In this document: positions 18,519 to 56,104 of the stretch, piece by piece | How positions within the stretch are numbered: position 1 is the stretch's first letter | Layout of the letters: the number at the start of each line of letters is the position of its first letter | Assembly: GCA_045586925.1 (NCBI GenBank) | Contig: JAZNBG010000035.1 | Coordinates: 6,417-70,416 of the forward strand | DNA length: 64,000 bases | Direction: 5' to 3' | Source of the DNA: Clostridia bacterium | Lineage (GTDB): Bacteria > Bacillota > Clostridia > Monoglobales > Monoglobaceae | The notes under the pieces: generated by a model | Told to the model about the DNA's origin: nothing | What the model saw: only the letters and a program-made list of their open reading frames with translations | The model's database searches: none | Program-made: the position numbers and the translations under genes

Positions 18519-19142
18519 GTGGATAAAAGACTTGGCGTACAAACTGTAAAAATGGAGCATCCTGTCAATATTCTTTCTGTGGCAAGTGTGGCAGGACAAA
18601 AGGAGTCGCAAGGCCCTTTGGCACAGCATTTTGATATCATTATGGAAGATGCCGAATGGGGCGAGCAAACTTGGGAAAAAACCGAGAGTAAGATGCAAAA
18701 ATCAGCGGTTATACGTGCTGTTGAAAAGGCTAGGGTTGACATTAAGGATATAAACTATCTTTTTGCAGGAGACCTTCTTAATCAGTGTATCAGTTCAACC
18801 TTTGGGCTAATGGATTTTGATATTCCCTTTATGGGAGTTTACGGTGCTTGCTCTACAATGGCAGAGACAATCGGACTTTCGGCAATAGCTATTGACGGCG
18901 GTTTTGCTAGGCTTGCGGCAGCAGTGACGTCAAGTCACTTCTGTACGGCTGAACGGCAGTACAGAAACCCGTTGGAATATGGTGGTCAGCGAACGCCTAC
19001 AGCACAATGGACTGTTACAGGCTCTGGGGCGGCAGTGCTTTCCAAAGAGGGGAAAGGCCCATATGTGACACATTTTACCTCGGGAAAGATTGTTGATTAT
19101 GGCATAAAGGATGCCAATAATATGGGTGCAGCGATGGCACCT
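18519..19142 (+). pseudogene. spoVAD: spoVAD 5' segment (codons 1-208 of a split gene)
   Basis: Thiolase-like SpoVAD N-terminal sequence (GACSTMAETIGLSA, TSSHFCTAERQYR). Homology ends at ...GAAMAP. The ORF then runs 8 unrelated codons to a stop at 19166. Confidence 0.9.
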
Positions 19143-19265
19143 GTAAGTGTTAAACTAACACCATAAGGCGATGTGCTAAATCTCTACAAATTATGCGCTT
19201 TTAAGCCTGATTTTGCATTTTGAGAGGTGATGGTTTAACACTTTTTATTATGGGAAGACGGAGGG

Positions 19266-19625
19266 GTGAAAGTGAGAAAAATTTATACTTATGGGAATGT
19301 ACAAAATTTTATAGAAAGAAGTGATGAAAAACTTAAAAACAAATTTCAAAATATTCTTGCCTATATCTCAAATGAGAAAAACGAACTTCGTGAACCTTAT
19401 GTGAGACATATTTCTCAAAACCGATTTAAAGGACTTTATGAAATAAGACTAAAGGTATCGGGAGCTATGTCAAGAGTTGTCTTTTCAAAGCAAGACGAAA
19501 ATATCATCCTTTTATATGCTTTTTATAAGAATGACAAGAAAGACACCAAAAGAGCACTTGAGCATTCGCTCAGGTTGTTAAATGACACAAGAAAAAATAA
19601 TTACAAGGAGGTACTTATAGCATGA
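19266..19625 (+). CDS. RelE/HigB-type toxin of the Gp49-like (DUF891) family
   Basis: FKGLYEIRLKVSGAMSRVVFSKQDENIILLYAFYKNDKKDTKRALEHSLRLL fits the Gp49/HigB pattern. No HTH antitoxin ORF follows. Confidence 0.6.
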   Translation: MKVRKIYTYGNVQNFIERSDEKLKNKFQNILAYISNEKNELREPYVRHISQNRFKGLYEIRLKVSGAMSRVVFSKQDENIILLYAFYKNDKKDTKRALEHSLRLLNDTRKNNYKEVLIA

Positions 19626-20671
19626 GGAAAATATTTGCAGTTAGTATAGTTTTGATAATTCTGTTGCTCGGGAGCGAAGTTTTTGCAGCATATATTGTTT
19701 CAGGTCAGGATATTTATATCAACGGCTCAAAAGCAGAAATGTCAGCAATAAATTTTAATGATAATAATTATGTGAAACTTCGGGATATTACAAAAGCATT
19801 GAATATTGAGATTACATACAATGCAGAAACAAATACTGTTTCAATCAATACCAACAAGCCTTACACAGAGGAAAATCCGAAAGTTGATTACATAAACGGG
19901 AAATCGTATGCAAGAGAAGATTTCACGCAAAAAGCTAATTCCGGTATTTTTAATGATGTGTATACAAGAGATGCTTATAATGCAATCAGGCAATCTATTA
20001 TTGATATTGCAGAAATTACAAATAATACCGATGAGAATGGATATAATGCAAATTATGAGTATGCTCACTTTGTTGATGACACATCTGACGGAATGGGAGA
20101 AACAATAGAAGCAATGAAATCCGTAACAGCAACAATGTTTGGTTATTACAATTTCAGTTTCGGTTATGAGCCAACAATATCAAACTTCTATGAATATCCC
20201 GGATACCGAATTTGCAAACCACAGATACATAAATACTTTGAACCAGCAAACAATGCAACCGACAGCTTTGTTGCAGAGATATCCAATTTTGCTGACCGAG
20301 AAAAAGTCAAACGGATTGCTGATTATATCTGCGAAAGGGTTGCATATAAGAATGAGAATGTTGCAGGAATAAATAAAGTATTTACAGGCACACCTCCTGT
20401 CAATGGAGTATGCGGTACTTATGCAGATGCATTTGTTTATCTTTGCCAACGAGCAGAAATTCCTTGCATATCAGTTGTTGATGATATTCACGCATGGAAC
20501 GAAGTGTATGTTGACGGCAAATGGTACACTACAGATATAAGCTATTATGATGTAGCAAGAACAGATGAATACCTGTTCCCTAAAAACTATCCTCGCACTG
20601 ATATAAACAAACAGAAAACAAATTTTACAAAAGAATTACTTGTTCCTGGAAGTACAAAAAGTACCGATTAA
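19622..20671 (+). CDS. Secreted transglutaminase-like cysteine-protease-fold protein with an N-terminal copper-amine-oxidase-like stalk domain
   Basis: Signal peptide MRKIFAVSIVLIILLLGSEVFA. NNYVKLRDITKALN stalk motif. Cys-His-Asp core in GVCGTYADAFVYLC ... IHAWNEVYVDGKWYTTD. Confidence 0.6.
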   Translation: MRKIFAVSIVLIILLLGSEVFAAYIVSGQDIYINGSKAEMSAINFNDNNYVKLRDITKALNIEITYNAETNTVSINTNKPYTEENPKVDYINGKSYAREDFTQKANSGIFNDVYTRDAYNAIRQSIIDIAEITNNTDENGYNANYEYAHFVDDTSDGMGETIEAMKSVTATMFGYYNFSFGYEPTISNFYEYPGYRICKPQIHKYFEPANNATDSFVAEISNFADREKVKRIADYICERVAYKNENVAGINKVFTGTPPVNGVCGTYADAFVYLCQRAEIPCISVVDDIHAWNEVYVDGKWYTTDISYYDVARTDEYLFPKNYPRTDINKQKTNFTKELLVPGSTKSTD

Positions 20672-20814
20672 AAACAAATTTTTAATCATATAGGGGGTTG
20701 CAAAAAAATTATTTTTTGGCCAAATTTTTAAATGTGTAGATATTGAAAAAATTGCACACCCCCTAAATGTGCTAAAAACGCAGTAATACAGGCGTTTTCA
20801 GGATGTGCAGAATT

Positions 20815-21137
20815 GTGAATTTTCAGGAAGATTTTGCACTAGTAGGGAGGGTTGCAAAATAGTCTTGAAAATAAGCACTAAAAGTTGTATCAAAGAACAG
20901 AAGTCGCCAAAGCATTTTTGCAGGGACTGTAGTTAAACATTATAATGTAGTTTTGAGTAAAAAGCAGATAAAAGAATTAAAGTTATTGCAAGAGCCTTGA
21001 AGGAAATAAGGAGTATGAACTCTAGAAATAAACTTGCAAAAGACGGAGTATTAGAGTTAAAACACACAACGCTTTGAAGAAAAAAAGAAAAGCAATCCGG
21101 CACCTTTGAAAGAACAAATCTTTTAAGGGTGCTTTTC
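20815..21137 (+). repeat. Direct repeat copy A (~320 bp) ending in a terminator hairpin
   Basis: Aligns with 27833-28161, including the identical blocks CACTAGTAGGGAGGGTTG and AAGTCGCCAAAGCATTTTTGCAGGGA. It ends with the GCACC...GGTGC hairpin (21100-21132) plus a T-run. Confidence 0.8.
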
Positions 21138-21198
21138 ATTACTAAGAAGTCGATATAACATTACAGATTATACTCAAACACAAATTAGTAAATCATAC

Positions 21199-21227
21199 TT
21201 GACTAATTTATTTTTATATGCTATAAT
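21199..21227 (+). promoter_or_regulatory. Sigma-A promoter of the defence gene cluster
   Basis: TTGACT (21199-21204), 17 nt, TATAAT (21222-21227). Confidence 0.55.
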
Positions 21228-21256
21228 GTAGATAACCTAAAATGGAGGTCATGTAT

Positions 21257-22648
21257 ATGTTTATAGGCAGAGAAAGAGAGCTTGAAGCTCTGAATAAGCT
21301 TTATAAATCAAATAAATTTGAATTTGCGGTTATCTATGGCAGACGCCGCGTTGGTAAAACTGCGCTCATAAATGAGTTTATAGATAACAAAAAAGCCATA
21401 TATTTTATGGGTGTTGAAAGCAATGCAAAGCAGAATCTTGAAAACTTCTCAAAAAGCATTATGGAGTTTGCAAGTGGTATTGAAACGGAATCCTCTTTCC
21501 TTTCGTTCCAGGCGGCGTTAGAGTATGTATTCAAGCTTGCGGAAAACGAAAGAATCATTCTTGCTATTGATGAATACCCTTATGTGGCTCGTTCATCAAA
21601 AAGCCTTGCATCTACTTTACAACTTCTAATTGATAAATATAAAGATACATCAAAATTGATGCTTATTCTCTGTGGTTCTTCTATGTCCTATATAGAAGAC
21701 CATGTGCTTGCATATAAAGCGCCTCTTTATGGCAGAAGAACAGCACAAATGAAACTTTTGCCATTTGACTTTGAGGAAACATGCAGATATTTCAAAAATC
21801 TATCTGATGAAGATAAAGCACTTATTTATGGCGTTGCAGGTGGCACACCGCAGTACCTTTTGCAGATGGACGATAAATTAAGCGTTGAAGACAATATAAA
21901 AAACACATACTTAAATCCAATTTCATTCTTGTATGAGGAACCAACTAATCTTTTAAAACAAGAAGTGCGTGAACCGGCTATTTACACTGCGATCATTACA
22001 GCTATTGCAACTGGCTCATCAAGAATGTCAGAGATTTCAAGTAAAGTTGGCGAAGATACAAATGTATGTGCAACTTATATTAAAAACTTGATTAATCTTG
22101 GCATTGTTCAGAAAGAAACACCGTATGGTGAAAAGGCATCTCGTAAGTCAGTTTACTCCATTGAGGACAATATGTTCCGCTTCTGGTATCGCTTTGTTCT
22201 TGAAAACAACTCAATCATTGCACGTGGTGCTGCTGATTTGGTTTACAAAAGAATTGAACCACATTTTTCTAACTATATGGGTAAGGTTTTTGAAGAAATT
22301 TGTAAACAGTATCTTTGGAAACAACTTCTTTCCGGTAACTGCCCTGTAGAGTTTACCTCTCTCGGCCGCTGGTGGGGTAATGATCCGAAAGAAAAGAGCC
22401 AAACTGAAATTGATATTATGGGAGAACAGGATAAAAACACAGCTCTCTTTGCAGAATGTAAGTGGACTAACGAAAAGGTTGACCTCGGTGTTTTAGAAAC
22501 ACTTATAAAACGAGGTAATTTGTTCTCATATAAAACAAAGCATTATTACCTGTTCTCAAAATCAGGATTTACAAAAGGTTGTATTGATAAGGCTAACGAG
22601 ATGAGTAATGTAAGTTTGATAGAGTTTGCGGATATGATGGAGGTATAG
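21257..22648 (+). CDS. AAA+ ATPase (Arch_ATPase type) with a C-terminal DUF234 nuclease-like domain
   Basis: The opening MFIGRERELEAL and Walker A GRRRVGKTAL, plus Walker B LAIDEYPY. The C-terminus EIDIMGEQDKNTALFAECKW resembles a PD-(D/E)xK motif. Confidence 0.65.
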   Translation: MFIGRERELEALNKLYKSNKFEFAVIYGRRRVGKTALINEFIDNKKAIYFMGVESNAKQNLENFSKSIMEFASGIETESSFLSFQAALEYVFKLAENERIILAIDEYPYVARSSKSLASTLQLLIDKYKDTSKLMLILCGSSMSYIEDHVLAYKAPLYGRRTAQMKLLPFDFEETCRYFKNLSDEDKALIYGVAGGTPQYLLQMDDKLSVEDNIKNTYLNPISFLYEEPTNLLKQEVREPAIYTAIITAIATGSSRMSEISSKVGEDTNVCATYIKNLINLGIVQKETPYGEKASRKSVYSIEDNMFRFWYRFVLENNSIIARGAADLVYKRIEPHFSNYMGKVFEEICKQYLWKQLLSGNCPVEFTSLGRWWGNDPKEKSQTEIDIMGEQDKNTALFAECKWTNEKVDLGVLETLIKRGNLFSYKTKHYYLFSKSGFTKGCIDKANEMSNVSLIEFADMMEV

Positions 22649-22649
22649 T

Positions 22650-24737
22650 ATGGCTAAGAAAAAGAATAAACATGAAGCATTGTCTGTTGGAAGATTAATT
22701 AACGAAGTTTTAGTCGATCAGCTAGGAATCCCATTTCGAAACATAGTTAATGATACAACTTTTTCAGATTTTACAGGTTCTAAAAGACCAGATATTTTAA
22801 TAGGAAATTTTGAATATACTGGATCAAACAATGAACAATATATAAAAAATCTTGTTGCATATGCAGAAGCAAAAGACATTACATGCAAAGTGGATGATAC
22901 TGAGTGGAAAGATGCGGTAAATCAAGGTAAAGAAAAGGCTGCAAAATTAGGATTACCATTTTTCGGTGTAACAAATTGTAAAACAACATATTTTTACAAT
23001 TTAAAAACCGGAAATAGAATTTCTTTAAACGGTAATGTCATCTATGAATTTCAGACATTGGATGTTTTTAGAATAATAAAAAAGCAATTAACCGAAAAAC
23101 CAAATGTTGATGATATAAAAATAGGTATAGATTCACTATCCTCTGTTTCAGAAGCTGTTTTCAACAAAAAACTTTGGGAGCTAAAAGAAGAATATCGTGC
23201 GATAGATTTCGAAAATAATACACAAAAAATAGATTTTACTGTAGGAATGATTGCGTTAGAATATTATGAAGAAAAAGCTGAGATAGATGGAACTAAAGAT
23301 AATTCTATGCAGTATTGGTCTACATGTAAGGCGATGATTCCCAATCCATATACATATGAAAACTCAAACACAATAACAACGATTTTAGTAACATATATAG
23401 ATAGACTTACTGGCGAAGAGTCGGAGTTTAAAGAATTTTCTCCGCTTTTAAAGAAGGTAAAGGAATTAATAAGCGGTCAGAAACCTATGATTAATTCTAA
23501 ACGTTTGCAATCTATATATTTTATTATTGATTCTATGCGACCTCTGCATGGTACGGGCTTTGACTTGTTCGGTGCAGTGTATGAAAATTTTGCAAACACA
23601 AAAGAGAAGAAGGATTTTGGTGAGTATTTTACAAGGCGACATTATGCACATGTTTTTGCGGAGTTATTGTTGCAGAAAGAAGATATTTTTAATTCCGAAT
23701 ATAAATTTTCTATTTTAGACCCAGCTTGTGGAACTGGCGGAATGCTTACAGAAAGTTTTAAGGTTTTGAAAAACAACTATGAATCTTCGGGTACATTTGA
23801 TCAAGAAGCACAAACTTTTTTGTCCGAAGAGTGCTTTTATGGAATAGATGTAAGAGGAGAAAATATTTCAAGAACCCGTTTAAATATGTTTTTGGTTGGT
23901 GATGGGCACACAAACATGCACTCTGATGACTCATTAAACCCAACAACAAAAACTGGGAAGAAATTTTTGAATAAAAAATATAAATATATCATAACAAACC
24001 CTCCTTATGGACCGGGTACAGAATTAGCAAACACAGATAGTATAAACTCTTATAGGTTCGAAATAGCGTTTATCTGTAGAATTATAGATCTCCTAGAAAG
24101 AAATGGTCAAGCGTGTATAATCACCCCTGATGGCATTTTGGAAAACCCTTCTTTGAAAAAGTTTCGAAATGAGATTTTGCAAACATGTGAAATATATGCA
24201 ATAGTTTCTTTACCCAAGTTTGCTTTTGCACCTTATACAAAAGAAAAAACATACGCATTATTCATTAGAAAACTACATGATAGAGCGTCCTCGGAGCAAA
24301 CCAATAAAAAATTGCCTACTGGGAAATTCCAATCAACTCCAATTTGGATGTATATCATTGATAACGATGGCTTTGCTAATTCTGATAAGAGATTCCCTAC
24401 TAGACTTAGAGATTCAAGTCAAAGATGGCAGCATGATGAGGTTTCGGGTTATGCTGATAGCGAAGGTATAGAAAGAAAAAGTATTCTTGAACAGCGATGG
24501 TTAAATTTTGACGATACAGCTACGGGTGGAACATTGTGGATTGATGAAGATGGCATTGAAGTAAAAATGAGAAAAGGTGGCTTTGTACAAATTGACTCTA
24601 TTCGAAATAATGATTTTTTGACTTTACTTCCAGAATATTATCTAAGACCATATGAACCTAAGTTTATAACAGAGGAACAATTTAATGAAAGTATGGATAA
24701 TATTGAACGTGAGATAAAAGAGTTTTTTGGACTGTAG
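22650..24737 (+). CDS. Fused restriction endonuclease / N6-adenine methyltransferase (BcgI-A-like, type IIB/IIG)
   Basis: N-terminal PD...ExK candidate (RPDILI ... AYAEAKD). Methyltransferase motif I LDPACGTGGML and motif IV ITNPPYG. No HsdR gene nearby. Confidence 0.6.
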   Translation: MAKKKNKHEALSVGRLINEVLVDQLGIPFRNIVNDTTFSDFTGSKRPDILIGNFEYTGSNNEQYIKNLVAYAEAKDITCKVDDTEWKDAVNQGKEKAAKLGLPFFGVTNCKTTYFYNLKTGNRISLNGNVIYEFQTLDVFRIIKKQLTEKPNVDDIKIGIDSLSSVSEAVFNKKLWELKEEYRAIDFENNTQKIDFTVGMIALEYYEEKAEIDGTKDNSMQYWSTCKAMIPNPYTYENSNTITTILVTYIDRLTGEESEFKEFSPLLKKVKELISGQKPMINSKRLQSIYFIIDSMRPLHGTGFDLFGAVYENFANTKEKKDFGEYFTRRHYAHVFAELLLQKEDIFNSEYKFSILDPACGTGGMLTESFKVLKNNYESSGTFDQEAQTFLSEECFYGIDVRGENISRTRLNMFLVGDGHTNMHSDDSLNPTTKTGKKFLNKKYKYIITNPPYGPGTELANTDSINSYRFEIAFICRIIDLLERNGQACIITPDGILENPSLKKFRNEILQTCEIYAIVSLPKFAFAPYTKEKTYALFIRKLHDRASSEQTNKKLPTGKFQSTPIWMYIIDNDGFANSDKRFPTRLRDSSQRWQHDEVSGYADSEGIERKSILEQRWLNFDDTATGGTLWIDEDGIEVKMRKGGFVQIDSIRNNDFLTLLPEYYLRPYEPKFITEEQFNESMDNIEREIKEFFGL

Positions 24738-24746
24738 GAGGAATAA

Positions 24747-25901
24747 ATGAAATATCAAGTAAAAGATTATCCTATTTGTGATGCTATCTCTTGCATGAGT
24801 GGAAATTCTGGTTTAACAGAGGAATTTATATATAGTACGACACAGATAAAGGGTAAAAGGTATATAGTTTTATCCAGTGCTTTAGAAGAGGAAACAATGA
24901 TGGGCGAAGTTCCGATGTGTACTTTAAACGATAAACCAATTAAAGTCTTTGAAAATAAGGAAGGGCTACTGGTTGCCAGAAATGGCAGAGCCGGGACAAC
25001 AAGATATTTAACCCCAGGGCGATATACAATTAATGATCATGCATATATCCTTTCGGTTAAAAAAGGTTGTCCATATAAAATTGATCTGAGATGGTTGGCT
25101 ATTCAATATAAAACTGAATTTCTTTCATATTCATCAGCTTCAGATAATGGCACATGGAACAAAACTGGCTTTTTTAAAAATGTTACAATAGACGTTCCTG
25201 ATATTGATGAGCAGATACGAATCGTTAATATGGTAGAAAAGGCACAACAAACTATAGAAAAGATAAAAATAATTAAGAAGGATTTGCTTAAAGCATTTGA
25301 ACGCATAATTTCTGTCGAATATTCTAAATATGTTAAACGTAATATACCAATTAATGATGTTTTAGATTGTATGAGTGGCAATTCGGGATTAACATCCGAA
25401 TTCATATATAGCACTTTACATAAGCCAGGTAAAAGATTCAAAGTTTTGTCTGGAGCAACACAAGAAGAGAATTTATTAGGAGAAATCCCCAAATGTGCAA
25501 TAGACGATAAAATGATTAAAACTTTTGAAGATAAAGAAGGTCTCCTAGTTGTTAGAAAAGGGAAAGCAGGTGCTACAAAGTTTCTGCCAAAGGGTAACTA
25601 TACAATAAATGATGATGCATATATCTTGTCTGTAAAGCCGGACTTTGAAAAGTTGGTTGATATTAGGTGGATAAAGATTCATTGTAAAACAGACTTTATG
25701 AATTATTCATCATCTTCGGACAATGGTACATGGAACAAAACAGGCTTTTTTAAAAATGTTACAATAGACATTCCAGCGTTGGAAGAACAAAAACGTGTTG
25801 CAGCAACATATGAGAAGGCCGAAAAGTATTTTGAAAAAATACAAAAAATCGAAAAGCAACTAACAGAATTGTTGGATAAAAGGCTCTGTTCAGAATTGTA
25901 A
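24747..25901 (+). CDS. HsdS-like specificity subunit with two homologous target-recognition domains
   Basis: The two halves (aa ~10-190 and ~200-384) align throughout, for example CMSGNSGLTEEFIYST / CMSGNSGLTSEFIYST and SDNGTWNKTGFFKNVTID in both. Confidence 0.75.
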   Translation: MKYQVKDYPICDAISCMSGNSGLTEEFIYSTTQIKGKRYIVLSSALEEETMMGEVPMCTLNDKPIKVFENKEGLLVARNGRAGTTRYLTPGRYTINDHAYILSVKKGCPYKIDLRWLAIQYKTEFLSYSSASDNGTWNKTGFFKNVTIDVPDIDEQIRIVNMVEKAQQTIEKIKIIKKDLLKAFERIISVEYSKYVKRNIPINDVLDCMSGNSGLTSEFIYSTLHKPGKRFKVLSGATQEENLLGEIPKCAIDDKMIKTFEDKEGLLVVRKGKAGATKFLPKGNYTINDDAYILSVKPDFEKLVDIRWIKIHCKTDFMNYSSSSDNGTWNKTGFFKNVTIDIPALEEQKRVAATYEKAEKYFEKIQKIEKQLTELLDKRLCSEL

Positions 25902-26018
25902 TGATAGTCAGATGTGTGAAGTTTTTTGATTTGCATATACCAAGAGCTCAAAAAAACATAGACTTTAGATAAGATTGATGTTTAAGTGATTGAACTCTTC
26001 TTACAGGAGGGAATATAA

Positions 26019-26660
26019 ATGTGGAGAAAGTTCCGTTGGGATATGTTTGTTACATCATTTATCCCATTATGGTTTTCTATTATTGTTTTTAATCTATGGA
26101 AAGTAGTAGAAATTTCAATTGATGTTTGGGATAAGAAAAGCAAGTACATTGATAACATAGTAAATTGCATTGAAAAAAGCTATGTTGAACTCGGTGTTAT
26201 GCTTGTTGTTATTTTACTTGTTTGGATTAGTATTAGTGGAATTAGCTCTTTTATAAAGGAACGTAAGTCTACAGAAAATAATCCTAAAGGGAAAATAATA
26301 CGAGCAACTAAAGCTAACAAACTTTCTTCTGAGTTTTTGTTAGCATACATACTTCCTATGATAGCTTTTGACTTTGGAGAAATAAAGGATATAGTTTTGT
26401 TTGTTATATACTTTTCTGTATTGGCCTTTTTGTGCATAAGAAACAATAATATTTATACAAATATTCTTTTGGAATTTAAGGGTTATAAAATGTACAACTG
26501 CGATATTGAGTGTTCGGTGCTTGAAAAGAAAAAGATTTATCACGACAGCTTGATAATAAGTGAAGTAGACTTAACTCAGATGGAAGAAAATGAGATACCA
26601 TATTGGGATTTTGACAAATATATTTATATAGCAATAAACGAGGTGGAAGATAGTGAGTAA
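26019..26660 (+). CDS. Four-TM membrane protein, KwaA-like (candidate Kiwa component)
   Basis: 213 aa with 4 predicted TM helices. It overlaps the next gene by 8 nt. Size and architecture match KwaA as I recall it, but no sequence comparison was possible. Confidence 0.35.
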   Translation: MWRKFRWDMFVTSFIPLWFSIIVFNLWKVVEISIDVWDKKSKYIDNIVNCIEKSYVELGVMLVVILLVWISISGISSFIKERKSTENNPKGKIIRATKANKLSSEFLLAYILPMIAFDFGEIKDIVLFVIYFSVLAFLCIRNNNIYTNILLEFKGYKMYNCDIECSVLEKKKIYHDSLIISEVDLTQMEENEIPYWDFDKYIYIAINEVEDSE

Positions 26661-28161: not shown

Positions 28162-28233
28162 TATAAACAAAATAATAACACCTGTCCGGTGATATAATAT
28201 CATAAAAAGCCATTATGGTTTGGAGGTGTTGTT

Positions 28234-45585: not shown

Positions 45586-45602
45586 AAAGGAGCGAATAAA
45601 TA

Positions 45603-46196: not shown

Positions 46197-46228
46197 AAAG
46201 TACAATTTAAGAAGGGAGTTGTTTATTT

Positions 46229-47422: not shown

Positions 47423-47431
47423 AGGTGTGGA

Positions 47432-48445: not shown

Positions 48446-48518
48446 GCTTAAAACGCAACTTGACAAAAAATTAGTTCTGACAACAAAACAAAATATATAA
48501 AACAAAGGAGAATAAATT

Positions 48519-49976
48519 ATGCAATGTCCAAAATGTGGAAAAGAGAATGCAGACAAAATGAAATTTTGTAGTCAATGCGGAAGCCCATTGGCTGACAATG
48601 AACAAAGAAAAGATGAAAGTACAGTGGTAGCTGGTGAAACAATATCGTCAAATGCATCATATACAAAACCTAAAAATTCAGTTGATGAAAATGTTAAAAG
48701 ATCAAAAATTTATTCATACTTCTATGGTTCAAACACTGTTTTTCAGCAGTTTATAATCATATTAGGTGTTTTCTGTCTTATGATGATTAATGTTGCTAAT
48801 GTAGCACAATATGCAAAGTACAACTCTATGCAAGAGAAGTATTATGAGTTGCGAGAAGAAGTATCAATGGCTGAAAGCGAGTATGAAGAGCTCTACTATG
48901 AATATAGATATGACTTTGATGTTGACCGATATGAGGCTGTTTCAGTTACAAAAGACGAAAAAGATTATGATGAAAAAGTTGAATATAATAAAGCTTTAGA
49001 AAAATATGAAAAAGCTAATGAAAAATGTGAACAGTATTCAGAAAAAATGAACAATGCACATTCTTCAACACCGTTTATGGAAACTGTTTTCAAATTTCTA
49101 GGATATATAGCAATTTTAGTTGGTGTTATTTGGTTTATTTATAAAAAAATCACTTTTGATAAAAGTGGAGAATATGTATATGATCAAGAATTGAAAGATA
49201 AAATTGAAGAAGCAAAACAAAAAGGAATGGACAAGCTTAACATTATTTCTGAGCAAATTGAGAAGGTAGAACCGGTTGTACTTAACGGTATTGCTCATGT
49301 TGATAATGATTTAGTGTCAGCAATATCCATAGGTAAGCTCGGCGCGTTATTCCAAACTTTGTTCAAGTTTATTTTGTCCTTTGATAAGATAATTATAGGA
49401 TTAATAGGTTCGTCTATTTTAACTACAATAAGTACATTTTTAGTTTCTAAAAATGTGCCGTTTATAATTGTATTTTTGCTGGTATTTGGCGGTATAGGAT
49501 ATTTAGGATGTCTCGTATATAAAAAGTATGAAATTGATTCCTACATAAAGCCTAAAACCATTGAAAGATTAAATAAATTTGCACCGCACTACATTGAAAG
49601 AGTAGGTAGTGATGACAGATTAAGAGTATCCCTTCCTGCTATTACGGTTTATATGTTTGGTGACGACCAGTTGTATATGTACTATCAGTATTTGGATATT
49701 GTAACTGGTAAAATATTCTGCGAAGGTGTTCATGAATACTTCTATGAGGATATCGTGGGTGTTACCTCTGCTCAGGAAACTAAAAAGACATATAAACGCT
49801 ATGGATTTATGAATCTCTTCTTGAGAAGCATTGATTATCTTAAAGAACATATTACAGTGGTTTCAAGCGGATGCATGCATAAGGAATCATATGTTGTTGA
49901 TATCGGACATTCTCTTCTCGACACACAATTTGTTGGTATGAGAAATCTTATTCGTCAGAAGAAAATGGAAAAGTGA
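48519..49976 (+). CDS. Zinc-ribbon multi-pass membrane protein of unknown function
   Basis: CPKCGKEN..CSQCG, an acidic coiled-coil segment and about 4 TM helices. The C-terminal ~130-aa domain is shared with the next protein. Confidence 0.45.
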   Translation: MQCPKCGKENADKMKFCSQCGSPLADNEQRKDESTVVAGETISSNASYTKPKNSVDENVKRSKIYSYFYGSNTVFQQFIIILGVFCLMMINVANVAQYAKYNSMQEKYYELREEVSMAESEYEELYYEYRYDFDVDRYEAVSVTKDEKDYDEKVEYNKALEKYEKANEKCEQYSEKMNNAHSSTPFMETVFKFLGYIAILVGVIWFIYKKITFDKSGEYVYDQELKDKIEEAKQKGMDKLNIISEQIEKVEPVVLNGIAHVDNDLVSAISIGKLGALFQTLFKFILSFDKIIIGLIGSSILTTISTFLVSKNVPFIIVFLLVFGGIGYLGCLVYKKYEIDSYIKPKTIERLNKFAPHYIERVGSDDRLRVSLPAITVYMFGDDQLYMYYQYLDIVTGKIFCEGVHEYFYEDIVGVTSAQETKKTYKRYGFMNLFLRSIDYLKEHITVVSSGCMHKESYVVDIGHSLLDTQFVGMRNLIRQKKMEK

Positions 49977-50060
49977 TAAAGAATTATTTTAATGTTAACT
50001 ACTGTGTAATGCCACTACATAGATGTTATATACAAACAACACAAAAGGAGATGTTTAAAC

Positions 50061-50720
50061 ATGGGACTTATTGATGGCGCAGCAGCTGCAGCTGAATTCG
50101 CACAATGGCAAGCACAAAGAAAGAACCTGATGAAAGCGGCTAATCCCACTCAGAAAAAGGCAATTAAATACTTTATTCCTGAACCAGGATGCAAAGGTCT
50201 TTTTGACAAAGTATCAGACGAAGAATATGATGAAATCGTAAAGGGTATGGTTAAGTCAAGCAATTCTTATCAGAGAGCTCTTGACAAAATCGGTCTTGAT
50301 GAAAGCGAACTTAAAGAGATTCCTCCGGTTACATTATACGGATACGAAGAAGGCAAGAATAGCTTTTCAAAAACAAATATAGATGGAACATACAGAACTA
50401 ACCTTTACTCCATCACACACTTGTTCTTCTCTGCTACACAGGTTTATATGTATCAGCTCGTTTTAAATACAATGAAGAATGACCGCAAGGAAAGAACTGA
50501 AGAATATTTCTATAAGGATATTACAAACTTCTCAACTCTTTCCGATACTGTTGAGTCTATTACTTTCAAGGGCTGTCAGAATACAGTGCAGAAAGTATCT
50601 GTTGAAGTACAGAAATTCTCTCTTATCGTACCTGGCGACAAATTCACTTGTGCTACATACGGTGATATCGATCAGCAGGTAAGAGCAATGAAAAATAAGC
50701 TTAGAGAAAAGAAACAATAA
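50061..50720 (+). CDS. Hypothetical soluble protein sharing a C-terminal domain with the 48519-49976 product
   Basis: QVYMYQL..EEYFYKDI..VRAMKNKLREKK parallels QLYMYYQ..HEYFYEDI..FVGMRNLIRQKK. Strong AAGGAG RBS. Confidence 0.45.
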   Translation: MGLIDGAAAAAEFAQWQAQRKNLMKAANPTQKKAIKYFIPEPGCKGLFDKVSDEEYDEIVKGMVKSSNSYQRALDKIGLDESELKEIPPVTLYGYEEGKNSFSKTNIDGTYRTNLYSITHLFFSATQVYMYQLVLNTMKNDRKERTEEYFYKDITNFSTLSDTVESITFKGCQNTVQKVSVEVQKFSLIVPGDKFTCATYGDIDQQVRAMKNKLREKKQ

Positions 50721-50752
50721 TTAGTTATAGCGTGCACGCTAAAGGTAATTAT

Positions 50753-50786
50753 AGGTGATATAGGTGGCATCTGTATCACCTTTTTT
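50753..50786 (+). terminator. Rho-independent terminator closing the long T7SS-like operon
   Basis: AGGTGATA / TATCACCT stem with a 13-nt loop, followed by T6. It is preceded by the palindrome AGCGTGCACGCT (50729-50740). Confidence 0.6.
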
Positions 50787-50802
50787 CTTAAAGGATGGTC
50801 AC

Positions 50803-51294
50803 ATGTTTAGAAAGAAAAAAGAATTTGTTGAGTATCACAAATATAAAGTTGTGAAAGAAAAAAAGATAGTAAGAAAAGAAGAAATATATCCTGAAACACA
50901 TCAAAAATTGGTAAGACCTAAAATAAACTACCTTAGTGTCTGTTTGAAAATAGCATTTAGTCTAGTTGTAAATCTTTTAATAATGATGTTGATTTTTGAT
51001 TTGATTACAAGGAAAGCGTCAATAACACACGAATGGATTTGGCGTGTTTTGACTTTTGTTTTTCTACAGGTGATAACAATTATAATTAGCTTAAAAAGAA
51101 TTGTGATTTTTATAATTAGATTGTATCAAAGGTATGCTCCGTATGAGGTAAGATCAACTTGTTTGTTTGTACCTAATTGTTCGGAATATATGGTTTTGGC
51201 AATTGAAAAATATGGTTTAATTAAAGGAATTAAAATGGGGCTAGCACGATTTAATCGATGTAAACCTCCATATGGCGGAGTAGATTATCCATAA
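50803..51294 (+). CDS. YidD-like membrane protein insertion efficiency factor domain with an N-terminal two-TM extension
   Basis: The C-terminus YAPYEVRSTCLFVPNCSEYMVLAIEKYGLIKGIKMGLARFNRCKP matches the YidD (haemolytic domain) signature. ATG 50803 was chosen because the ORF-track start lies inside the terminator. Confidence 0.6.
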   Translation: MFRKKKEFVEYHKYKVVKEKKIVRKEEIYPETHQKLVRPKINYLSVCLKIAFSLVVNLLIMMLIFDLITRKASITHEWIWRVLTFVFLQVITIIISLKRIVIFIIRLYQRYAPYEVRSTCLFVPNCSEYMVLAIEKYGLIKGIKMGLARFNRCKPPYGGVDYP

Positions 51295-51316
51295 TAAAAA
51301 AGAGAGGAGAATATGT

Positions 51317-51556
51317 ATGAATCTTATAGTTGCAATCGGAGGAGTAATTTTAAGTCTGATAATAAATTTCTTACCTACTATAATTGCTTTTGTAAAAGGA
51401 AGTTATAAAAAAATTAATGTTTTATTATTAAATGGCATTCCATATGCTTTGTCTGTTGTGTTGATTTTTATTTCGATCCCTGTACTGAACCCAATAATTG
51501 CTTTAATAAATATTGTTTCATGGGTTGCAGCTTTAATAATGGCTTTGAAAAATTAG
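51317..51556 (+). CDS. Small membrane protein, superinfection-immunity (Imm, PF14373-like) family
   Basis: FLPTIIAFVKGSYKKINVLLLN ... VSWVAALIMAL fits the pattern of that family as I recall it. Confidence 0.5.
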   Translation: MNLIVAIGGVILSLIINFLPTIIAFVKGSYKKINVLLLNGIPYALSVVLIFISIPVLNPIIALINIVSWVAALIMALKN

Positions 51557-51662
51557 AGGTTTTTTATACATAAGAACAATAAAAGAATATTATTTTAAAA
51601 AATTAATAAAAAAAACAACTCCACCTATTGTAAAGATAAAAATGATGTGTTAAAATATGCTT

Positions 51663-51850
51663 GTAAAAACTCATGATGAGTTTCAGGTAAGAAGATTACA
51701 CAGGTAAGAAGTTAAGCAGGTTTAAGATGTTACTCAAAGGGACAAGTCTGCCCTTTTGCAGAAAACGCACCTGTGATTGTCATAAGTGGAAACAAAAAGA
51801 AAGCAAACGCAAGTAATGAACCTACGGGGGATTTCGGTGTTTGCTTTTAT
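51663..51850 (+). ncRNA. Candidate small RNA unit 1 (own promoter and terminator)
   Basis: Promoter TTGTAA (51628-51633), 17 nt, TGtTAAAAT (hexamer 51651-51656). The body has GGTAAGAAG twice plus TTAAGCAGGT, then the GGGACAAGTCTGCCC motif with a T-run (51739-51757). The second hairpin is AAGCAAAC/GTTTGCTT with a T-run ending at ~51850. Confidence 0.3.
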
Positions 51851-51972
51851 TTTATCAAGTAGTAGAAAATAAAAATGCTTCGAGTATAGAAAAAACATTG
51901 AAAAAGTGAAACGATATGTTTATTTTCCCTCCAGGTATTGTAAATCAGGAAATAATAATGTAAAATGTACTT

Positions 51973-52056
51973 GTAAAAATGGTAAGCAGTTACACGGGTA
52001 AGCAGTTAAGCAGGTTAGCATAAAAATTGTTGGCGGGATAAGTCTGTCCGTTTTTA
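51973..52056 (+). ncRNA. Candidate small RNA unit 2 (paralogue of unit 1)
   Basis: Promoter TTGTAA (51938-51943), 17 nt, TAAAAT (51961-51966). The body has GGTAAGCAG twice plus TTAAGCAGGT, then GGGATAAGTCTGTCC followed by T5. Confidence 0.3.
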
Positions 52057-52674
52057 GCTATCTGCTTTAATGGAAAGTGTGAAAAGCATTATCCAATTTT
52101 ACGGAGATTAAAATTATATAGGCGGTAACAAAGAATGTAGAAACTATCCTATGGGATAAGACTGCATTCTTTTTGTTTTTAGAAGATAGATTTATCGGTT
52201 AGGAATAAAAGTTTTTATGAAGTCCTATACGGCACTTTTTACACTGTCTTGTAAAAGGATGTACGGACACAAAGATGTTTTGGTTGGAGAAACAAAAATG
52301 CAGAGTTTGCCATCGGATTTGTACGCATAGACTTTAAAAAATCCGTAGAGGTTGGACAGAACCTTGACATAGTAGCGGCTGTGAAAATATTAAATTACAT
52401 ATGTCACCGCTATGACATATTTCAGCATCGGCATAAATATATGCACCTGAGTTTAGCAGGGATGCTACCGCAGGAGAGTTTCTCCAACTACCTTTTGCGG
52501 GAATATTACTAACCGAGCAATATGCTTTAGATAAAATGGAGACAGGAACAAAGAAAACGTCTCAAAATACTGCAAATACTGGGTTTCTCACACAGTCATA
52601 CCGGGAAACACAGAGGTAACGAGGTGAAATTCCAACGGGATAGGTATGCCCTATGCTGAGGAAAGGACATTACA

Positions 52675-53535
52675 ATGTGTAAAAACATATACAAGAACTT
52701 GGAAATACAGTACAAGAAATTATTCCGCCATTTAAAGGTCGGAAGTTTCAAAACAAGAGAACGTTACGGAAAGGCGTTTAAGCGATTCATGGTATTTTTG
52801 GCAAGAGAATATCATTTGCAAAAGTTGGCAAACATTTCAGAAAAGCATATATACGCTTATGTAAGCTATATGCAAAATAAAGGTTTGTCTGCCTCAACAA
52901 TAAAGACCGAGCTTGCGGCAATACGATTTTTCCACGACAGTATGCCGTACACAAGAAGCACCTTGCCGACAAATGATGAACTCGAACTTGAAAAACGTAA
53001 TTTCGGCGGAGTTGACAGAACTTGGTCCGAAATAGAGTTTGCAAAAATGCTTGCAGCATCAGTGATGGGAGAATATCCGGAGTATTCGGGAATGCTTTAC
53101 CTTGGAAGATATGCCGGACTTCGTTTGGAAGAATGTTTCCGCATTGACACCAACGATGCTAAAAATGCTCTTGAAACGGGACAGCTACTGGTTAAAGGCA
53201 AAGGTGGACTCACAAGGTATGTACCGATTTGCTATCAACTTGAGATTGTATTTCGTGATATGTTAAAGATTACACCTATCGGACAAAAGCTATTTGTAAG
53301 ACCGTATGACAAGACACATCTTGCAATGAAGCGTTTGCAAAATTTTATTGCATACCACAGAAAAGAGTTTACTGAAAACAGAATTACCTTTCATGGACTT
53401 CGACATACATATGCTCACGAACAGTATGAGAAGTTCATAAAAGAAGGTTGTTCGGAATTTGATGCCCGAAAAAAGGTATCGGAGCTGCTCGGTCATCATC
53501 GTGATGATGTAACGAGAATATATTTAGCCGAATAA
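52675..53535 (+). CDS. Tyrosine recombinase/integrase
   Basis: SAM-like N-terminal domain (HIYAYVSYMQNKGLSASTIKTELAAIRFF). GLRLEE (Arg), HGLRHTYA (His-x-x-Arg) and LGHHRDDVTRIYL (His, Tyr). Confidence 0.8.
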   Translation: MCKNIYKNLEIQYKKLFRHLKVGSFKTRERYGKAFKRFMVFLAREYHLQKLANISEKHIYAYVSYMQNKGLSASTIKTELAAIRFFHDSMPYTRSTLPTNDELELEKRNFGGVDRTWSEIEFAKMLAASVMGEYPEYSGMLYLGRYAGLRLEECFRIDTNDAKNALETGQLLVKGKGGLTRYVPICYQLEIVFRDMLKITPIGQKLFVRPYDKTHLAMKRLQNFIAYHRKEFTENRITFHGLRHTYAHEQYEKFIKEGCSEFDARKKVSELLGHHRDDVTRIYLAE

Positions 53536-53582
53536 AAATTTGAATATTTGGAAATTATTAGATATAGCGAAAGGAGCTTTGT

Positions 53583-53789
53583 ATGATAAGTACTTCTGAT
53601 ATCGATAATTTCGTAGATTTGAAAAATTTGGCTATTGATAAAACAAAACCAATTGAGGAGCGGCTAAAGCAATTTATCACGGATGTAAAAAATCCGTATA
53701 TGGTAAGAGTTGGCGATACACTGGTACGAATAGAATTTACCGGTGGAAGAAACTTTTCAGATGCTTTAACTGCAGCTTTCGGTGCATAA
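53583..53789 (+). CDS. 68-aa protein of unknown function immediately upstream of the large serine recombinase (possible directionality or accessory factor)
   Basis: AAAGGAG RBS. The suggested role rests on position only. Confidence 0.3.
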   Translation: MISTSDIDNFVDLKNLAIDKTKPIEERLKQFITDVKNPYMVRVGDTLVRIEFTGGRNFSDALTAAFGA

Positions 53790-53813
53790 GTGGAAATTTC
53801 ATAATATTTCCTC

Positions 53814-53842
53814 TTGAAGTTTAGGCGGCGGTATGATATAAT
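53814..53842 (+). promoter_or_regulatory. Sigma-A-like promoter of the large serine recombinase gene
   Basis: TTGAAG (53814-53819), 17 nt, TGaTATAAT (hexamer 53837-53842). Confidence 0.45.
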
Positions 53843-53897
53843 TTTTAATGTAGAGATTAGCATATCGCCGTCAAAATAAAAGACGGAGGTACGCGAT

Positions 53898-55580
53898 ATG
53901 ACAAATACAAAATATGCGATGTACTTAGAGCAGCCTCCAGTATTTAAAATACAGTGGAGAGCTGCTCTTTATATAAGACTTTCAAAAGAAGATGGCGACA
54001 AAGGAGAAAGTAACTCTGTAACATCGCAGAGAGAAATATTAAAAGAATTCTTAAAGCTTCGCCCTGACATTGAACTCTATGACATTTATGTAGATGATGG
54101 TTGGTCGGGTACAAACTTTGACAGACCTGATTTTACACGAATGATGGAAGATATTTATTCCGGCAATGTAAATTGTGTTATAGTAAAGGATTTATCGAGA
54201 TTCGGAAGAAACTATACTGATAGCGGAAATTATCTTGACAATGTGTTTGTGAGGCTCAGAGTTCGTTTTATTGCACTTAATAACGGTGTTGATACCGCAT
54301 CAAACAATATGAACGCTGCAACACAGTGTATTTCTGTAGGTGTTACTAATGTTATCAACGAAAGTGTTGCCGCAACAACTTCGGTGAATGTTCGCGGAAC
54401 ACTGAATGTAAACCGTGCTCAAGGTAAATTTATAGGTTCTTTTCCAACATACGGATATTTAAAAGATCCTAATGACCATCATAAACTTATTGTTGATGAA
54501 GAAGTTGCGCCTGTTATTCGGTCAATATTTGAACGATTTGTTGCAGGTAAAAGTATAATCGGCATTGCAAAGGAACTAAACGAAGAAGGTATTCCTAATC
54601 CTTCAATGTATAAGAAACTTAAAGGTTTTAATTATAGACATCCCGTAGGAAAAAGCAATGACGGATTATGGCCGGACAGTTCTGTGCGAAGAATACTGCG
54701 AAATGAAATGTATATCGGCAATATGGTGCAAGGTAAAAATACAACAATAAGTTATAAGATTAAGCAATGCAGGCCAATTCCTAAAGAGGATTGGATTATT
54801 GTTGAAAACACTCACGAGGCTATTGTAAGTAAAGAGATATTTGAAAAAGCACAGTCTCTTTTCAACAAAAACATACGAGTCGCACCACAGAAAAAAGAAG
54901 TAGATTTATTTTCTGGTTTTGTTCGCTGTGCTGATTGTCATAGAACTATGAATAAGAAAACCAATGTCCATTCTTATGCAACATATCATTATTATCGTTG
55001 TTCTACTGCAAGAAAGATGAAAAAAAGTGCTTGTGGTAATCATACGATAAGAATTGATAAGCTGGAAGAAGCGGTATTAGTTGTTATTCAGAACATGGTT
55101 GATGTGGCAATTGAAATGGATGATATTCTAAAGAGAATCAATTCCAATGGTGAAAGAAAAAAAGAATCCAAACATCTTAAAAAGGCAATCGAAACACAAA
55201 CTGCTGAAAGGGATAAATGCAAACGAATGATGGTTGATTTGTATCCTGACTGGAAGAATGGCATTATTACTCAAGAGGAATATTTAATGTTAAAGCAGGG
55301 TATTTCAGAAAAAATAGAAACTCTTGATAAAATGATAGAAAATCTCACCGAAACAGCAAGAAGTTACGAGGAAGGAGTAAATGATGAAAATGAATTTATA
55401 GCCCATTTCAAGGCTCATGGCAAAATAAAAGCTTTAACCCGAAATCTTCTGCTTGAGTTGGTTGACGAGATTTTAGTTCACGAGGGCGGAGATATTACCG
55501 TGAAATTCAAGTTTAACGATGCCTATAAAGAAGTTATGGAATATATTGAAATGAATAAGGATGTTATTAAGACTGCTTAA
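53898..55580 (+). CDS. Large serine recombinase (SpoIVCA/SprA/phage-integrase type)
   Basis: 560 aa. Resolvase catalytic domain (AALYIRLSKEDGDKGESNSVTSQ, VKDLSRFGRN), a recombinase domain, a zinc-ribbon (CADCHRTM...YYRCST..ACGNH) and a coiled-coil tail. It lies 130 bp from the right junction. Confidence 0.9.
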   Translation: MTNTKYAMYLEQPPVFKIQWRAALYIRLSKEDGDKGESNSVTSQREILKEFLKLRPDIELYDIYVDDGWSGTNFDRPDFTRMMEDIYSGNVNCVIVKDLSRFGRNYTDSGNYLDNVFVRLRVRFIALNNGVDTASNNMNAATQCISVGVTNVINESVAATTSVNVRGTLNVNRAQGKFIGSFPTYGYLKDPNDHHKLIVDEEVAPVIRSIFERFVAGKSIIGIAKELNEEGIPNPSMYKKLKGFNYRHPVGKSNDGLWPDSSVRRILRNEMYIGNMVQGKNTTISYKIKQCRPIPKEDWIIVENTHEAIVSKEIFEKAQSLFNKNIRVAPQKKEVDLFSGFVRCADCHRTMNKKTNVHSYATYHYYRCSTARKMKKSACGNHTIRIDKLEEAVLVVIQNMVDVAIEMDDILKRINSNGERKKESKHLKKAIETQTAERDKCKRMMVDLYPDWKNGIITQEEYLMLKQGISEKIETLDKMIENLTETARSYEEGVNDENEFIAHFKAHGKIKALTRNLLLELVDEILVHEGGDITVKFKFNDAYKEVMEYIEMNKDVIKTA

Positions 55581-55586
55581 ACAAAA

Positions 55587-55618
55587 GGCTCCTGCAGGTA
55601 TAATAAAATGCAGGAGTC
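55587..55618 (+). terminator. Candidate terminator after the recombinase gene
   Basis: GGCTCCTGCA / TGCAGGAGTC stem (one G-U pair) with a 12-nt loop and a weak T tail. Confidence 0.4.
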
Positions 55619-55711
55619 TTACTTTGTGAATTTTCACATAAAAACACACGTAGAATTATAGAAAACAAACAAAAATAAAAAATTTATGGTGTACCCTTGA
55701 CATTTTCCCCT

Positions 55712-56104
55712 GCGGCGGCAGATACCTTGGCAGCGCATTTTAAAGACACGGGCAGACAACCTGACTTTTATGACCTGATTTTATCGGGTGATTTAGGAAT
55801 TGTGGGCAAGGCGGCATTAATTGACCTGATGTACGAAAAAGGATACAGAATATCAAGTAATTATGACGATTGCGGTTGTATGATTTTTGACATAGACAAT
55901 CAGGATATGCATGCTGGCGGTTCGGGTTGCGGGTGTCTGGCGGTAACGTTGTGCGGATATATTATGGATATTATTAAGGCGGGAAAACTGAAAAACGTGC
56001 TTTTTATGGGGACGGGAGCATTACTCAGTCCCACATCAACGCTGCAAGGCGGAACAATTCCATCGGTGGCACACGCGGTGGCAATTACTGCAGAGAGGGG
56101 GTAG
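55712..56104 (+). pseudogene. spoVAD: spoVAD 3' segment (codons 209-338 of the split gene)
   Basis: From AAADTLAAHFKDTGRQPDFYDLILSGDL onward it matches the SpoVAD C-terminal half (GGSGCGCLAV, TGALLSPT). There is no RBS or plausible own start. It is in frame with the 5' segment if 19142 is joined to 55712. Confidence 0.9.

Follow-up and report, generated by a model that had tools for sequence, protein, structure and literature searches.

We report that the sporulation gene spoVAD, in a 64,000-nucleotide stretch of DNA from a Clostridia bacterium (contig JAZNBG010000035.1; the whole of this stretch is called the window), is interrupted after the codon for Pro208 by a 36,569-bp AT-rich insertion, and that this insertion belongs to a horizontally mobile, site-specific and non-phage family of elements having a single target within spoVAD and a precise restoration product. 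The split of the gene is neither a chance pattern nor an assembly artefact, and recombination between the two attachment sites of the element, attL and attR, would restore spoVAD to the base. The only genes common to all members of the family encode a large serine recombinase (LSR) and a small protein of the DUF6870 family. With regard to the function of this arrangement we tentatively favour, without calling it probable, a reading in which excision is triggered in the forespore via DUF6870 and is followed by re-integration after germination.

The interrupted spoVAD gene

The locus is composed of the following features.

18067..18516, + strand: spoVAC (TIGR02838, E 6e-55, above the curated cut-off)
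18519..19142, + strand: spoVAD 5' fragment, codons 1-208 (open reading frame continuing to 19166; SpoVAD profile and alignment with structure 3LMA)
19142..55708: inserted island, 36,569 bp core to core, AT-rich, with nearly all genes on the + strand
55712..56104, + strand: spoVAD 3' fragment, codons 209-338 plus stop (joined reading frame, SpoVAD profile)
56110..56475, + strand: spoVAE (TIGR02839, E 8e-45)

The original prediction, made from the sequence of the window alone, held that the open reading frame (ORF) starting 2 nt past spoVAC reads as SpoVAD up to NMGAAMAP (codon ending at 19142) and then diverges, that the ORF before spoVAE becomes SpoVAD-like only from 55712, and that joining these two positions gives one ORF of 338 codons, a typical length for SpoVAD. 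These statements could all be confirmed. In the integrated state the 5' fragment continues for seven element-encoded codons (VSVKLTP) to a stop at 19164-19166, AAADTLAAHF is read from 55712 onward, and 19142 joined to 55712 results in a single ORF of 338 codons plus stop, with the closest intact SpoVADs in public data (94% identity) likewise having 338 aa. The joined product covered the SpoVAD models of NCBIfam end to end (NF006160, E 2e-149, positions 2-335 of 337; TIGR02845, E 1.7e-134, full model length) and aligned with the B. subtilis SpoVAD structure 3LMA (E 5e-94) without any gap over the joint, where MGAAMAPA/AADT of the joined product stands against MGSAMAPAAADT of 3LMA, in agreement with the match of AMAP/AAAD to B. 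subtilis SpoVAD that had been given in the prediction. The split falls within the conserved NNMGAAMAPAA, which is the most conserved motif of SpoVAD. Also the CCTG noted at both junctions was present (19140-19143 and 55709-55712), and the interior, described as AT-rich, had a GC content of mostly 0.30-0.36 (to 0.38 at 52-54 kb) as compared with 0.41-0.44 in the flanks.

Uninterrupted loci carrying the predicted unoccupied site (attB) were found in two relatives (L001 and L002), both having the gene order malQ-spoVAC-AD-AE-miaB-ylbF-mutS-mutL as in the window. When the insertion was removed in silico, the window became colinear with the locus of one of these relatives over the joint, at 90% over 5,450 bp. 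No exact protein matches to the LSR, SpoVAC or SpoVAE of the window were found in database look-ups. A replacement copy of spoVAD inside the element was considered and ruled out, with tblastn giving no further matches in the window or in any of the related loci. One database protein (P0006, 494 aa, SpoVAD match E 3e-205) exceeds the usual length by approximately 150 residues and may be a fusion or have a miscalled start.

The 3' ORF had been said to have no credible start, and this was upheld: an in-frame TTG is found at 55697, 15 nt ahead of the joint, preceded only by a weak GGTG, and these Shine-Dalgarno-like bases vary among relatives, the largest subgroup having GGTT in place of GGTG. Such an in-frame TTG, 15 nt 5' of the joint, is present in nearly all attR sites. 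At the other end, a stop seven codons past the joint, located inside the terminal inverted repeat, is seen in most attL sites (19143-19166 in the window), and the truncated N-terminal product should for this reason carry a short fixed tail.

A mobile family with a single target

The recombination module and the attachment (att) sites of the window are as follows.

53583..53789, + strand: DUF6870 gene, 68 aa (PF21757, E 3.5e-18)
53898..55580, + strand: LSR, 560 aa, with Resolvase, Recombinase, Zn_ribbon_recom and DUF4368 domains
19115..19166, + strand: attL, with host half 19115-19139, CC at 19140-19141 and element half 19142-19166 ending in ACACCATAA (19158-19166)
19148..19156, + strand: TGT-TAAACT, an extended -10-like sequence within attL (TGT and TAnAnT in 14/14 attL)
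55684..55735, + strand: attR, with element half 55684-55708 starting with TTATGGTGT (55684-55692), CC at 55709-55710 and host half 55711-55735

The LSR gene lies at the edge of the island by the spoVAD 3' fragment and ends 130 bp from the joint. Its product matched PF00239, PF07508 and PF13408 above cut-offs, with the catalytic motif Y-x-R-x-S being read as LYIRLS, together with a weak match to DUF4368 (E 1e-4). The best named relative, as ranked by identity, was TndX of Tn5397, which is 35.5% identical along 92% of the length. No close relatives were found in phage collections, where the best matches reached 39% (INPHARED) and 44% (IMG/VR) identity.

Directly upstream of the LSR gene, with a gap of 110-130 bp, the DUF6870 gene was found in 70 of the 71 loci covering that region, and it was also seen beside LSRs of 36-44% identity. 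At two such loci (L086 and L088, LSR of 36% identity) it is followed by three tandem recombinases. There was no DUF6870 gene next to the TndX gene on an Enterococcus plasmid; the protein gave no PHROG match, and no publication on DUF6870 was found in the literature searched. We regard DUF6870 as a candidate recombination directionality factor.

Scanning of species-representative genomes (one per species) for the LSR gave 476 relatives, and the loci of the best 80 were examined. These 80 LSRs, having 60-99% identity, all come from metagenome-assembled genomes labelled Oscillospiraceae, Acutalibacteraceae or unclassified Clostridia, with goat, sheep, deer, chicken and human gut as sources. A spoVAD fragment adjoined the element in 58/80 loci, always ending with residue 208 or starting with residue 209, and at the remaining 22 no element boundary was reached within the available sequence. 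Metagenome contigs, those of human gut included, yielded 40 further attR junctions using an attR-specific pattern, and for at least 33 of them the C-terminal fragment begins at its first residue, Ala209 of the joined protein. Among about 90 junctions altogether, no target other than spoVAD was seen. A contig in IMG/VR (L083:162-4409) has a DUF6870 gene followed by two tandem LSR genes at the same spoVAD position, the LSR being 44% identical, and its element arm beside the core copies host sequence (ATGGCACC). A short metagenome contig (L116:1280-1450) has a palindromic copy of the attR arm with a spoVAD 3' fragment on either side, the two being arranged head to head, which is most likely an assembly artefact in a low-coverage contig.

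The host SpoVAD halves of the family loci are only 42-66% identical to those of the window. LSRs that are 98-100% identical among themselves reside in hosts with SpoVAD C-terminal halves averaging 64% identity, and the elements therefore move between distant hosts. Complete elements span 5.5-36.6 kb with no cargo in common, examples of which are genes for sugar and aromatic amino-acid metabolism, an ECF-type transporter, and HipA-like or RecQ/DprA-like genes. Since a MobA/VirD2 relaxase and a NikA/MobC protein were encoded in 22 loci and TnpV was the first gene in four, much of the family consists of integrative mobilizable elements (IMEs). In the largest subgroup the DUF6870 gene follows the relaxase genes and might share a transcript with them.

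Alignment of 53 attR and 14 attL sites, the latter taken from different species, was used to define the crossover. The attR sites follow the pattern ATGGTNNNNNCTTGACATNNNCCCCNGCNGC, with TTGACA (55697-55702 in the window) in 52/53 and CC in all 53, and the element arms read TTTATGGTGTACCCTTGACATTTTCC on one side and TGTAAGTGTTAAACTAACACCATAA on the other. At L024 and L055, attL and attR carry different bases at the third position of the Pro208 codon, with the first two (CC) being equal in every case, and for that reason the crossover is most likely the CC dinucleotide (19140-19141 / 55709-55710) and not the whole CCTG. The reconstructed attP comprises 52 bp (25 bp, CC, 25 bp), is bounded by the 9-bp inverted repeat TTATGGTGT/ACACCATAA and has the CC in its centre. 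A centred dinucleotide in a short attP with a terminal inverted repeat is the usual design for large serine recombinases, and the sites found here are short, with an imperfect dyad and a predicted 2-bp crossover.

In a circle formed by excision, the joined element arms would read TTGACA, 17 bp and TGT-TAAACT. The TGn and the T, A, A and T positions of this -10-like sequence are kept in 14/14 attL sites, with the two tolerant positions varying, and no sigma70-like site was found at attL alone or at attR alone. A promoter formed by the att arms in the circle only is, on these motifs, a hypothesis of moderate strength, and the pattern of TTGACA against TGTTAA is in part the mere dyad of a recombinase site.

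Compartment of expression and proposed timing of excision

The described intervening elements of sporulation genes (in sigK, spsM, spoVFB, spoVR, gerE and yabG) interrupt mother-cell genes and, where tested, their excision is confined to the mother cell, whereby the spore keeps the element (PMC4191935, PMC5595907, PMC10747680). The spoVA operon of C. difficile is, however, sigmaG-dependent, with the transporter being synthesized in the forespore (PMC3789822). Promoters were evaluated using position weight matrices (PWMs), which replaced simple regular expressions for sporulation sigma factors that had been found too crude. The forespore PWM is a two-block matrix made from 41 mapped C. difficile sigmaF/G promoters (PMC3789822), and the sigmaE and sigmaK PWMs were likewise made from mapped promoters. 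The window has these promoter candidates.

18009..18038, + strand: candidate host spoVA promoter of forespore (sigmaF/G) type, TGCATA-14-GCAAATAATA, conserved in the window, L001 and L002
53529..53559, + strand: candidate forespore-type promoter upstream of DUF6870, CGAATA-15-GGAAATTATT, PWM score 10.4
53814..53842, + strand: candidate sigma70-type promoter of the LSR gene, TTGAAG-17-TATAAT with TG

The host candidate upstream of spoVAC scored 12.0 with the forespore PWM, as compared with 6.6 for sigmaE and 5.9 for sigmaK, and its forespore score ranks near the 95th percentile among intergenic controls and the 99th among tiled windows. By homology and motifs, spoVAD does not appear to be a mother-cell target as those of the described intervening elements, and given the sigmaG dependence of spoVA and the forespore type of the host promoter, excision in the mother cell would not place SpoVAD where it is needed. 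A further forespore PWM match (TGATTA-13-GCCAATAATA, score 13.1) lies at 19094-19122 in the spoVAD 5' fragment, 20 nt before the crossover and pointing into the element; it overlaps the DYGIKDANNMG coding motif, scores in one related locus (L057) too, and may be coincidental.

Upstream of DUF6870, the site of the window (53529-53559) coincides with a block that is conserved in relatives having otherwise differing upstream sequence, and in most lineages a forespore PWM site occupies a constant position immediately before the ribosome-binding site of DUF6870, including those whose surrounding sequence cannot be aligned. Examples are GGAATA-14-GGCAAAAATA (score 17.0), TGTATA-14-GTCAAAAATA (16.2) and AGCATA-15-GGCAATAATT (12.9), and the largest subgroup has GGTTTA-14-ACCAATAATA, which is close to the C. 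difficile spoVAC promoter GGTTTA-13-AACAATAATA. The forespore PWM scored on average 9.5 upstream of DUF6870 versus 6.0 for 309 GC-matched intergenic controls from the same loci (p = 1.3e-11), and when the loci were collapsed to 22 LSR clusters the medians were 9.0 versus 6.1 (p = 1.4e-5). The sigmaE and sigmaK PWMs showed no enrichment upstream of DUF6870 (p = 0.54 and 0.94, respectively), nor did the forespore PWM upstream of the LSR gene, and any signal for sigmaE or sigmaK upstream of either gene was at most marginal (p = 0.04). The evidence for a forespore motif at DUF6870 is found at the level of the family and not in this one sequence.

The LSR gene seems to have a conserved promoter of the vegetative (sigmaA) type, a strict TTGAAA-17-TGnTATAAT being present upstream of it in 11 of 48 dereplicated relatives as compared with 0.3 expected. 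In five elements the module is located 20-180 bp downstream of attL and on the same strand, and read-through from the spoVA operon would then suffice for its expression in the forespore, no separate promoter being required.

In the reading that we tentatively favour, the LSR would be made constitutively from its own vegetative-type promoter and would, alone, only integrate. DUF6870, acting as the excision (directionality) factor, would be transcribed in the forespore, either from its own sigmaF/G-type promoter or by spoVA read-through where the module adjoins attL. Excision would then take place in the developing spore, which depends on SpoVAD to take up dipicolinate, and the non-replicating circle would stay trapped in the dormant spore. 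Upon germination, DUF6870 production would stop and the recombinase would re-integrate the circle, the outcome being a reversible switch in the germ line rather than a terminal deletion in the mother cell. That forespore-only DUF6870 flips a constitutive integrase in this manner, with the circle being a dormant episome that is re-inserted after germination, possibly helped by the circle-junction promoter, is an idea that we consider possible, holding it with a little more reserve.

Several points weigh against forespore-triggered excision. The regulatory steps proposed are all deduced from motifs, and the forespore PWM derives from promoters of C. difficile and not from those of the present hosts. 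In the window itself the site scoring 10.4 is no better than 54 others found when both strands of the 64 kb were scanned (128 kb in total), and the DUF6870 upstream region of the window scores 9.2 with the sigmaE PWM. A structural model of DUF6870 (pLDDT 79) gave no Foldseek match in the PDB at E <1, known directionality factors included, and TnpX, the best-studied serine recombinase of an IME, both excises and integrates without any directionality factor (PMC5704250). Metagenome and viral contigs held no attP junctions, as compared with 40 attR junctions serving as the positive control, which shows that circles are not assembled and not that they are not formed. In those elements having the module by attL, the circle promoter would drive DUF6870 and the LSR, thereby opposing re-integration if DUF6870 is the excision factor. 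Finally, the C-terminal spoVAD fragments of the family loci are intact to the normal stop in 51/51 cases and split spoVAD has a dN/dS of 0.05-0.10 against intact orthologues, similar to intact genes compared with each other, but because most insertions look recent these figures are uninformative on current function and prove little as to whether spoVAD is still used.

A serious possibility, though on the whole a doubtful one, is that the family consists of ordinary Tn4451/Tn5397-like elements without developmental coupling, for which spoVAD is a safe harbour and simply becomes inactivated. The integrase would then recognize a highly conserved part of spoVAD, a gene that the cells can do without while growing in the gut, spores of the carriers would be poor in dipicolinate or absent, the elements would persist by transfer and useful cargo, and excision would occur occasionally, together with transfer. 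That TndX is the closest named relative of the LSR agrees with this, as do the relaxase, NikA/MobC and TnpV genes of many members, the near-identical LSRs in very different hosts that speak for recent transfer, the missing attP junctions and the position of DUF6870 behind the relaxase genes in the largest subgroup. IMEs with serine recombinases typically disrupt dispensable genes, with TnpX needing no directionality factor (PMC5704250), and a spoVA mutant of C. perfringens still forms spores, which lack dipicolinate and have reduced viability (cited in PMC3789822). Simple inactivation leaves unexplained, however, why a motif of forespore and not of mother-cell type should be found at a fixed position upstream of DUF6870 over 22 LSR clusters, why a constitutively expressed integrase should have a conserved small partner, and why no alternative target was seen among the approximately 90 junctions; moreover, carriers among the species-representative genomes commonly keep all of the neighbouring spoVA genes intact.

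We find it very unlikely that the element functions as skin or SPbeta do, with excision only in the terminal mother cell and the spore keeping the element. The architecture is the same, in that a sporulation gene is split precisely and in frame by an element having an LSR at its edge, and all described precedents work in that way. SpoVA proteins are, however, made in the forespore under sigmaG (PMC3789822), and with a host promoter of forespore type a restored copy in the mother cell would not supply the spore membrane; neither the marginal sigmaE/sigmaK signals nor the gene content, which lacks phage genes, point in that direction. Least probable of all, and hardly to be considered further, is assembly of an N-terminal fragment (residues 1-208 plus seven) with a C-terminal fragment started at the TTG (55697) into a functional protein needing no excision, for although this TTG and the stop past the joint recur in nearly all attR and most attL sites, respectively, the TTG belongs to the TTGACA that is invariant in the recombinase site, the GGTG preceding it is not conserved, no promoter was found at attR and the split lies inside the most conserved motif of SpoVAD.

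Cargo of the island and relation to known systems

The island was annotated by Pfam, NCBIfam, PADLOC and PHROGs scans, with the following cargo genes recognized.

19266..19625, + strand: Gp49/HigB-like small protein, first gene past attL (PF05973, E 5e-11)
21242..25901, + strand: defence cargo with ATPase/DUF234 (PADLOC candidate PDC-S27), N6 DNA methyltransferase and type I specificity subunit
26019..27585, + strand: Kiwa-like pair KwaA and KwaB (PADLOC KwaA E 2e-20; Pfam KwaB E 2e-15)
28234..28908, + strand: small serine resolvase
29052..29552, + strand: YpsA/SLOG protein
29629..30477, + strand: tyrosine recombinase
31433..45585, + strand: type VII secretion (T7SSb) cargo block (Pfam and TIGR03928)
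52675..53535, + strand: second tyrosine recombinase, common to the closest relatives L003 and L005

A transglutaminase-like secreted protein is also encoded near the left end of the island according to the profile scans. No restriction subunit was recognized in the defence block (21242..25901), and two unannotated ORFs on the opposite strand (27162-28203) follow the Kiwa pair. A TetR regulator belongs to the same group as the resolvase, SLOG protein and first tyrosine recombinase.

The T7SSb block encodes an SPFH/zinc-ribbon protein, EssC (32575-37239; 1019.8 bits against TIGR03928, cut-off 778), a YukD-like protein, three WXG100 proteins, DUF4176, a PP2C phosphatase and two Ser/Thr kinases, and has with its EssC ATPase and WXG100 substrates the characteristics of a Firmicutes-type system. 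EssC carries an FHA domain, and the phosphatase and the two kinases flank the T7SSb genes. EssA, EssB and EsaA were not recognized in the block; the ORFs at 37247-38044 and 39532-40791, which lack matches, may be stand-ins for these missing components. The block was found in none of the related elements within reach. It is followed by several zinc-ribbon or beta-lactamase-like membrane proteins. Thereafter comes a 1.1-kb stretch (51557-52674) having no ORF of at least 60 aa and no Rfam match, Rfam having given no match anywhere in the window; from 52120 onward it is 92% identical to locus L003, and it could contain an oriT or a regulatory region. The three further recombinases (one small serine resolvase and two tyrosine recombinases) suggest accretion of other elements or invertible segments.

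Of the island ORFs, 41 were scanned with Pfam and PHROGs and none of these encodes a phage structural, packaging or lysis protein (capsid, tail or terminase), the sole tail-like matches being two weak ones (E ~1e-4) to a repetitive 419-aa protein, and a prophage was ruled out for this lack of phage genes. The element was likewise ruled out to be present in tandem or nested copies, the window having no further att-like sites.

That an element carried by a recombinase interrupts a sporulation gene is known as such; new are the target, the forespore context, the recombination module and the breadth of the family. The literature searched gave no mention of integration into spoVAD, including the survey in PMC7192596 with its supplements and a study of mobile genetic elements in permafrost, and in the ImmeDB paper spoVA genes appear only as supposed cargo. 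Described rebuilding of sporulation genes by DNA excision relies on a mother cell that is a dead end, a scheme into which a family targeting a forespore gene does not fit, and the family is common across the gut Clostridia of ruminants, birds and humans. If excision in the germ line holds true, this would be a new mode of coexistence between mobile elements and sporulation and the first case of a programmed DNA rearrangement taking place in the forespore and not in the mother cell; DUF6870 would represent a new family of recombination directionality factors, the recombinase and its partner would make up a pair with built-in control of directionality, and spore-specific genome editing in gut anaerobes could be tested. 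If spoVAD is instead just put out of action, dipicolinate uptake is abolished in many gut Clostridia by a mobile element that they carry, whereby spore heat resistance and transmission should change and genome-based inference of sporulation would be affected. In either case, annotated spoVAD fragments in these taxa should not be taken as pseudogenes, and the islands also transfer metabolic genes, defence systems and a type VII secretion system from one family to another. The interest of the system lies mainly in the paradox of the compartment and in its being directly testable.

The architecture had originally been likened to that of skin in sigK and SPbeta in spsM. This comparison was supported with regard to the precise in-frame split, the LSR at the edge, the att sites and the empty sites, and was not with regard to the nature of the element, which is non-phage, and of the target, which is a forespore gene; because spoVA is expressed in the forespore, the resemblance to skin is structural only and the mechanism of skin fails here. 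Skin, acting through SpoIVCA, is similar in that its cargo is unrelated across species with the recombinase alone being shared (bioRxiv 10.1101/2022.02.25.481979), but differs in being prophage-derived and in having a mother-cell target and a terminal deletion as its outcome. In SPbeta, the LSR SprA splits the sporulation gene spsM in frame and excision restores the gene, with a small partner, SprB, whose compartment-specific promoter is proposed to time excision while the integrase is expressed more generally (PMC4191935; PMC5499854); this promoter is sprB's own and lies directly upstream of it (PMC4191935). The mechanism proposed here would mirror that of SprA and SprB with the compartment reversed. 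SPbeta is, however, an active phage, whereas the spoVAD element lacks phage genes, has a forespore target and has DUF6870 with a forespore-type motif. The gin element in gerE of B. cereus ATCC 10987 is, as the spoVAD element, non-phage, carries serine recombinases and interrupts a sporulation gene (PMC5595907), and tandem recombinases are found in our L083; gerE is nevertheless a mother-cell regulator, and gin was characterized experimentally in one B. cereus strain whereas the spoVAD family covers hundreds of species.

With Tn4451/Tn4453 (TnpX) and Tn5397 (TndX) the family shares the 2-bp crossover and, in relatives of the window's element, TnpV and relaxase genes. The LSR has its DUF4368 match in the C-terminal part, and TnpX and TndX probably share this domain. 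Lyras and Rood (2000, pmid 11069682) are reported to have described a circle-specific promoter for Tn4451, which the TTGACA-17-TGnTAnAnT of the att arms, formed only in the circle, would resemble. Differences are that Tn4451 has low target specificity and no partner protein (PMC5704250), as compared with the single target and conserved DUF6870 of the spoVAD family, and that the element of the window has, by tblastn and Pfam, no relaxase, unlike 22 related loci. A last parallel is active lysogeny, as with the Listeria comK prophage and the Streptococcus mutL element, where excision is reversible and the host gene is restored in cells that go on to reproduce, followed by re-integration (PMC7192596), as we infer for spoVAD; those elements are phages or phage-like and respond to infection or stress, whereas the spoVAD element would respond to sporulation.

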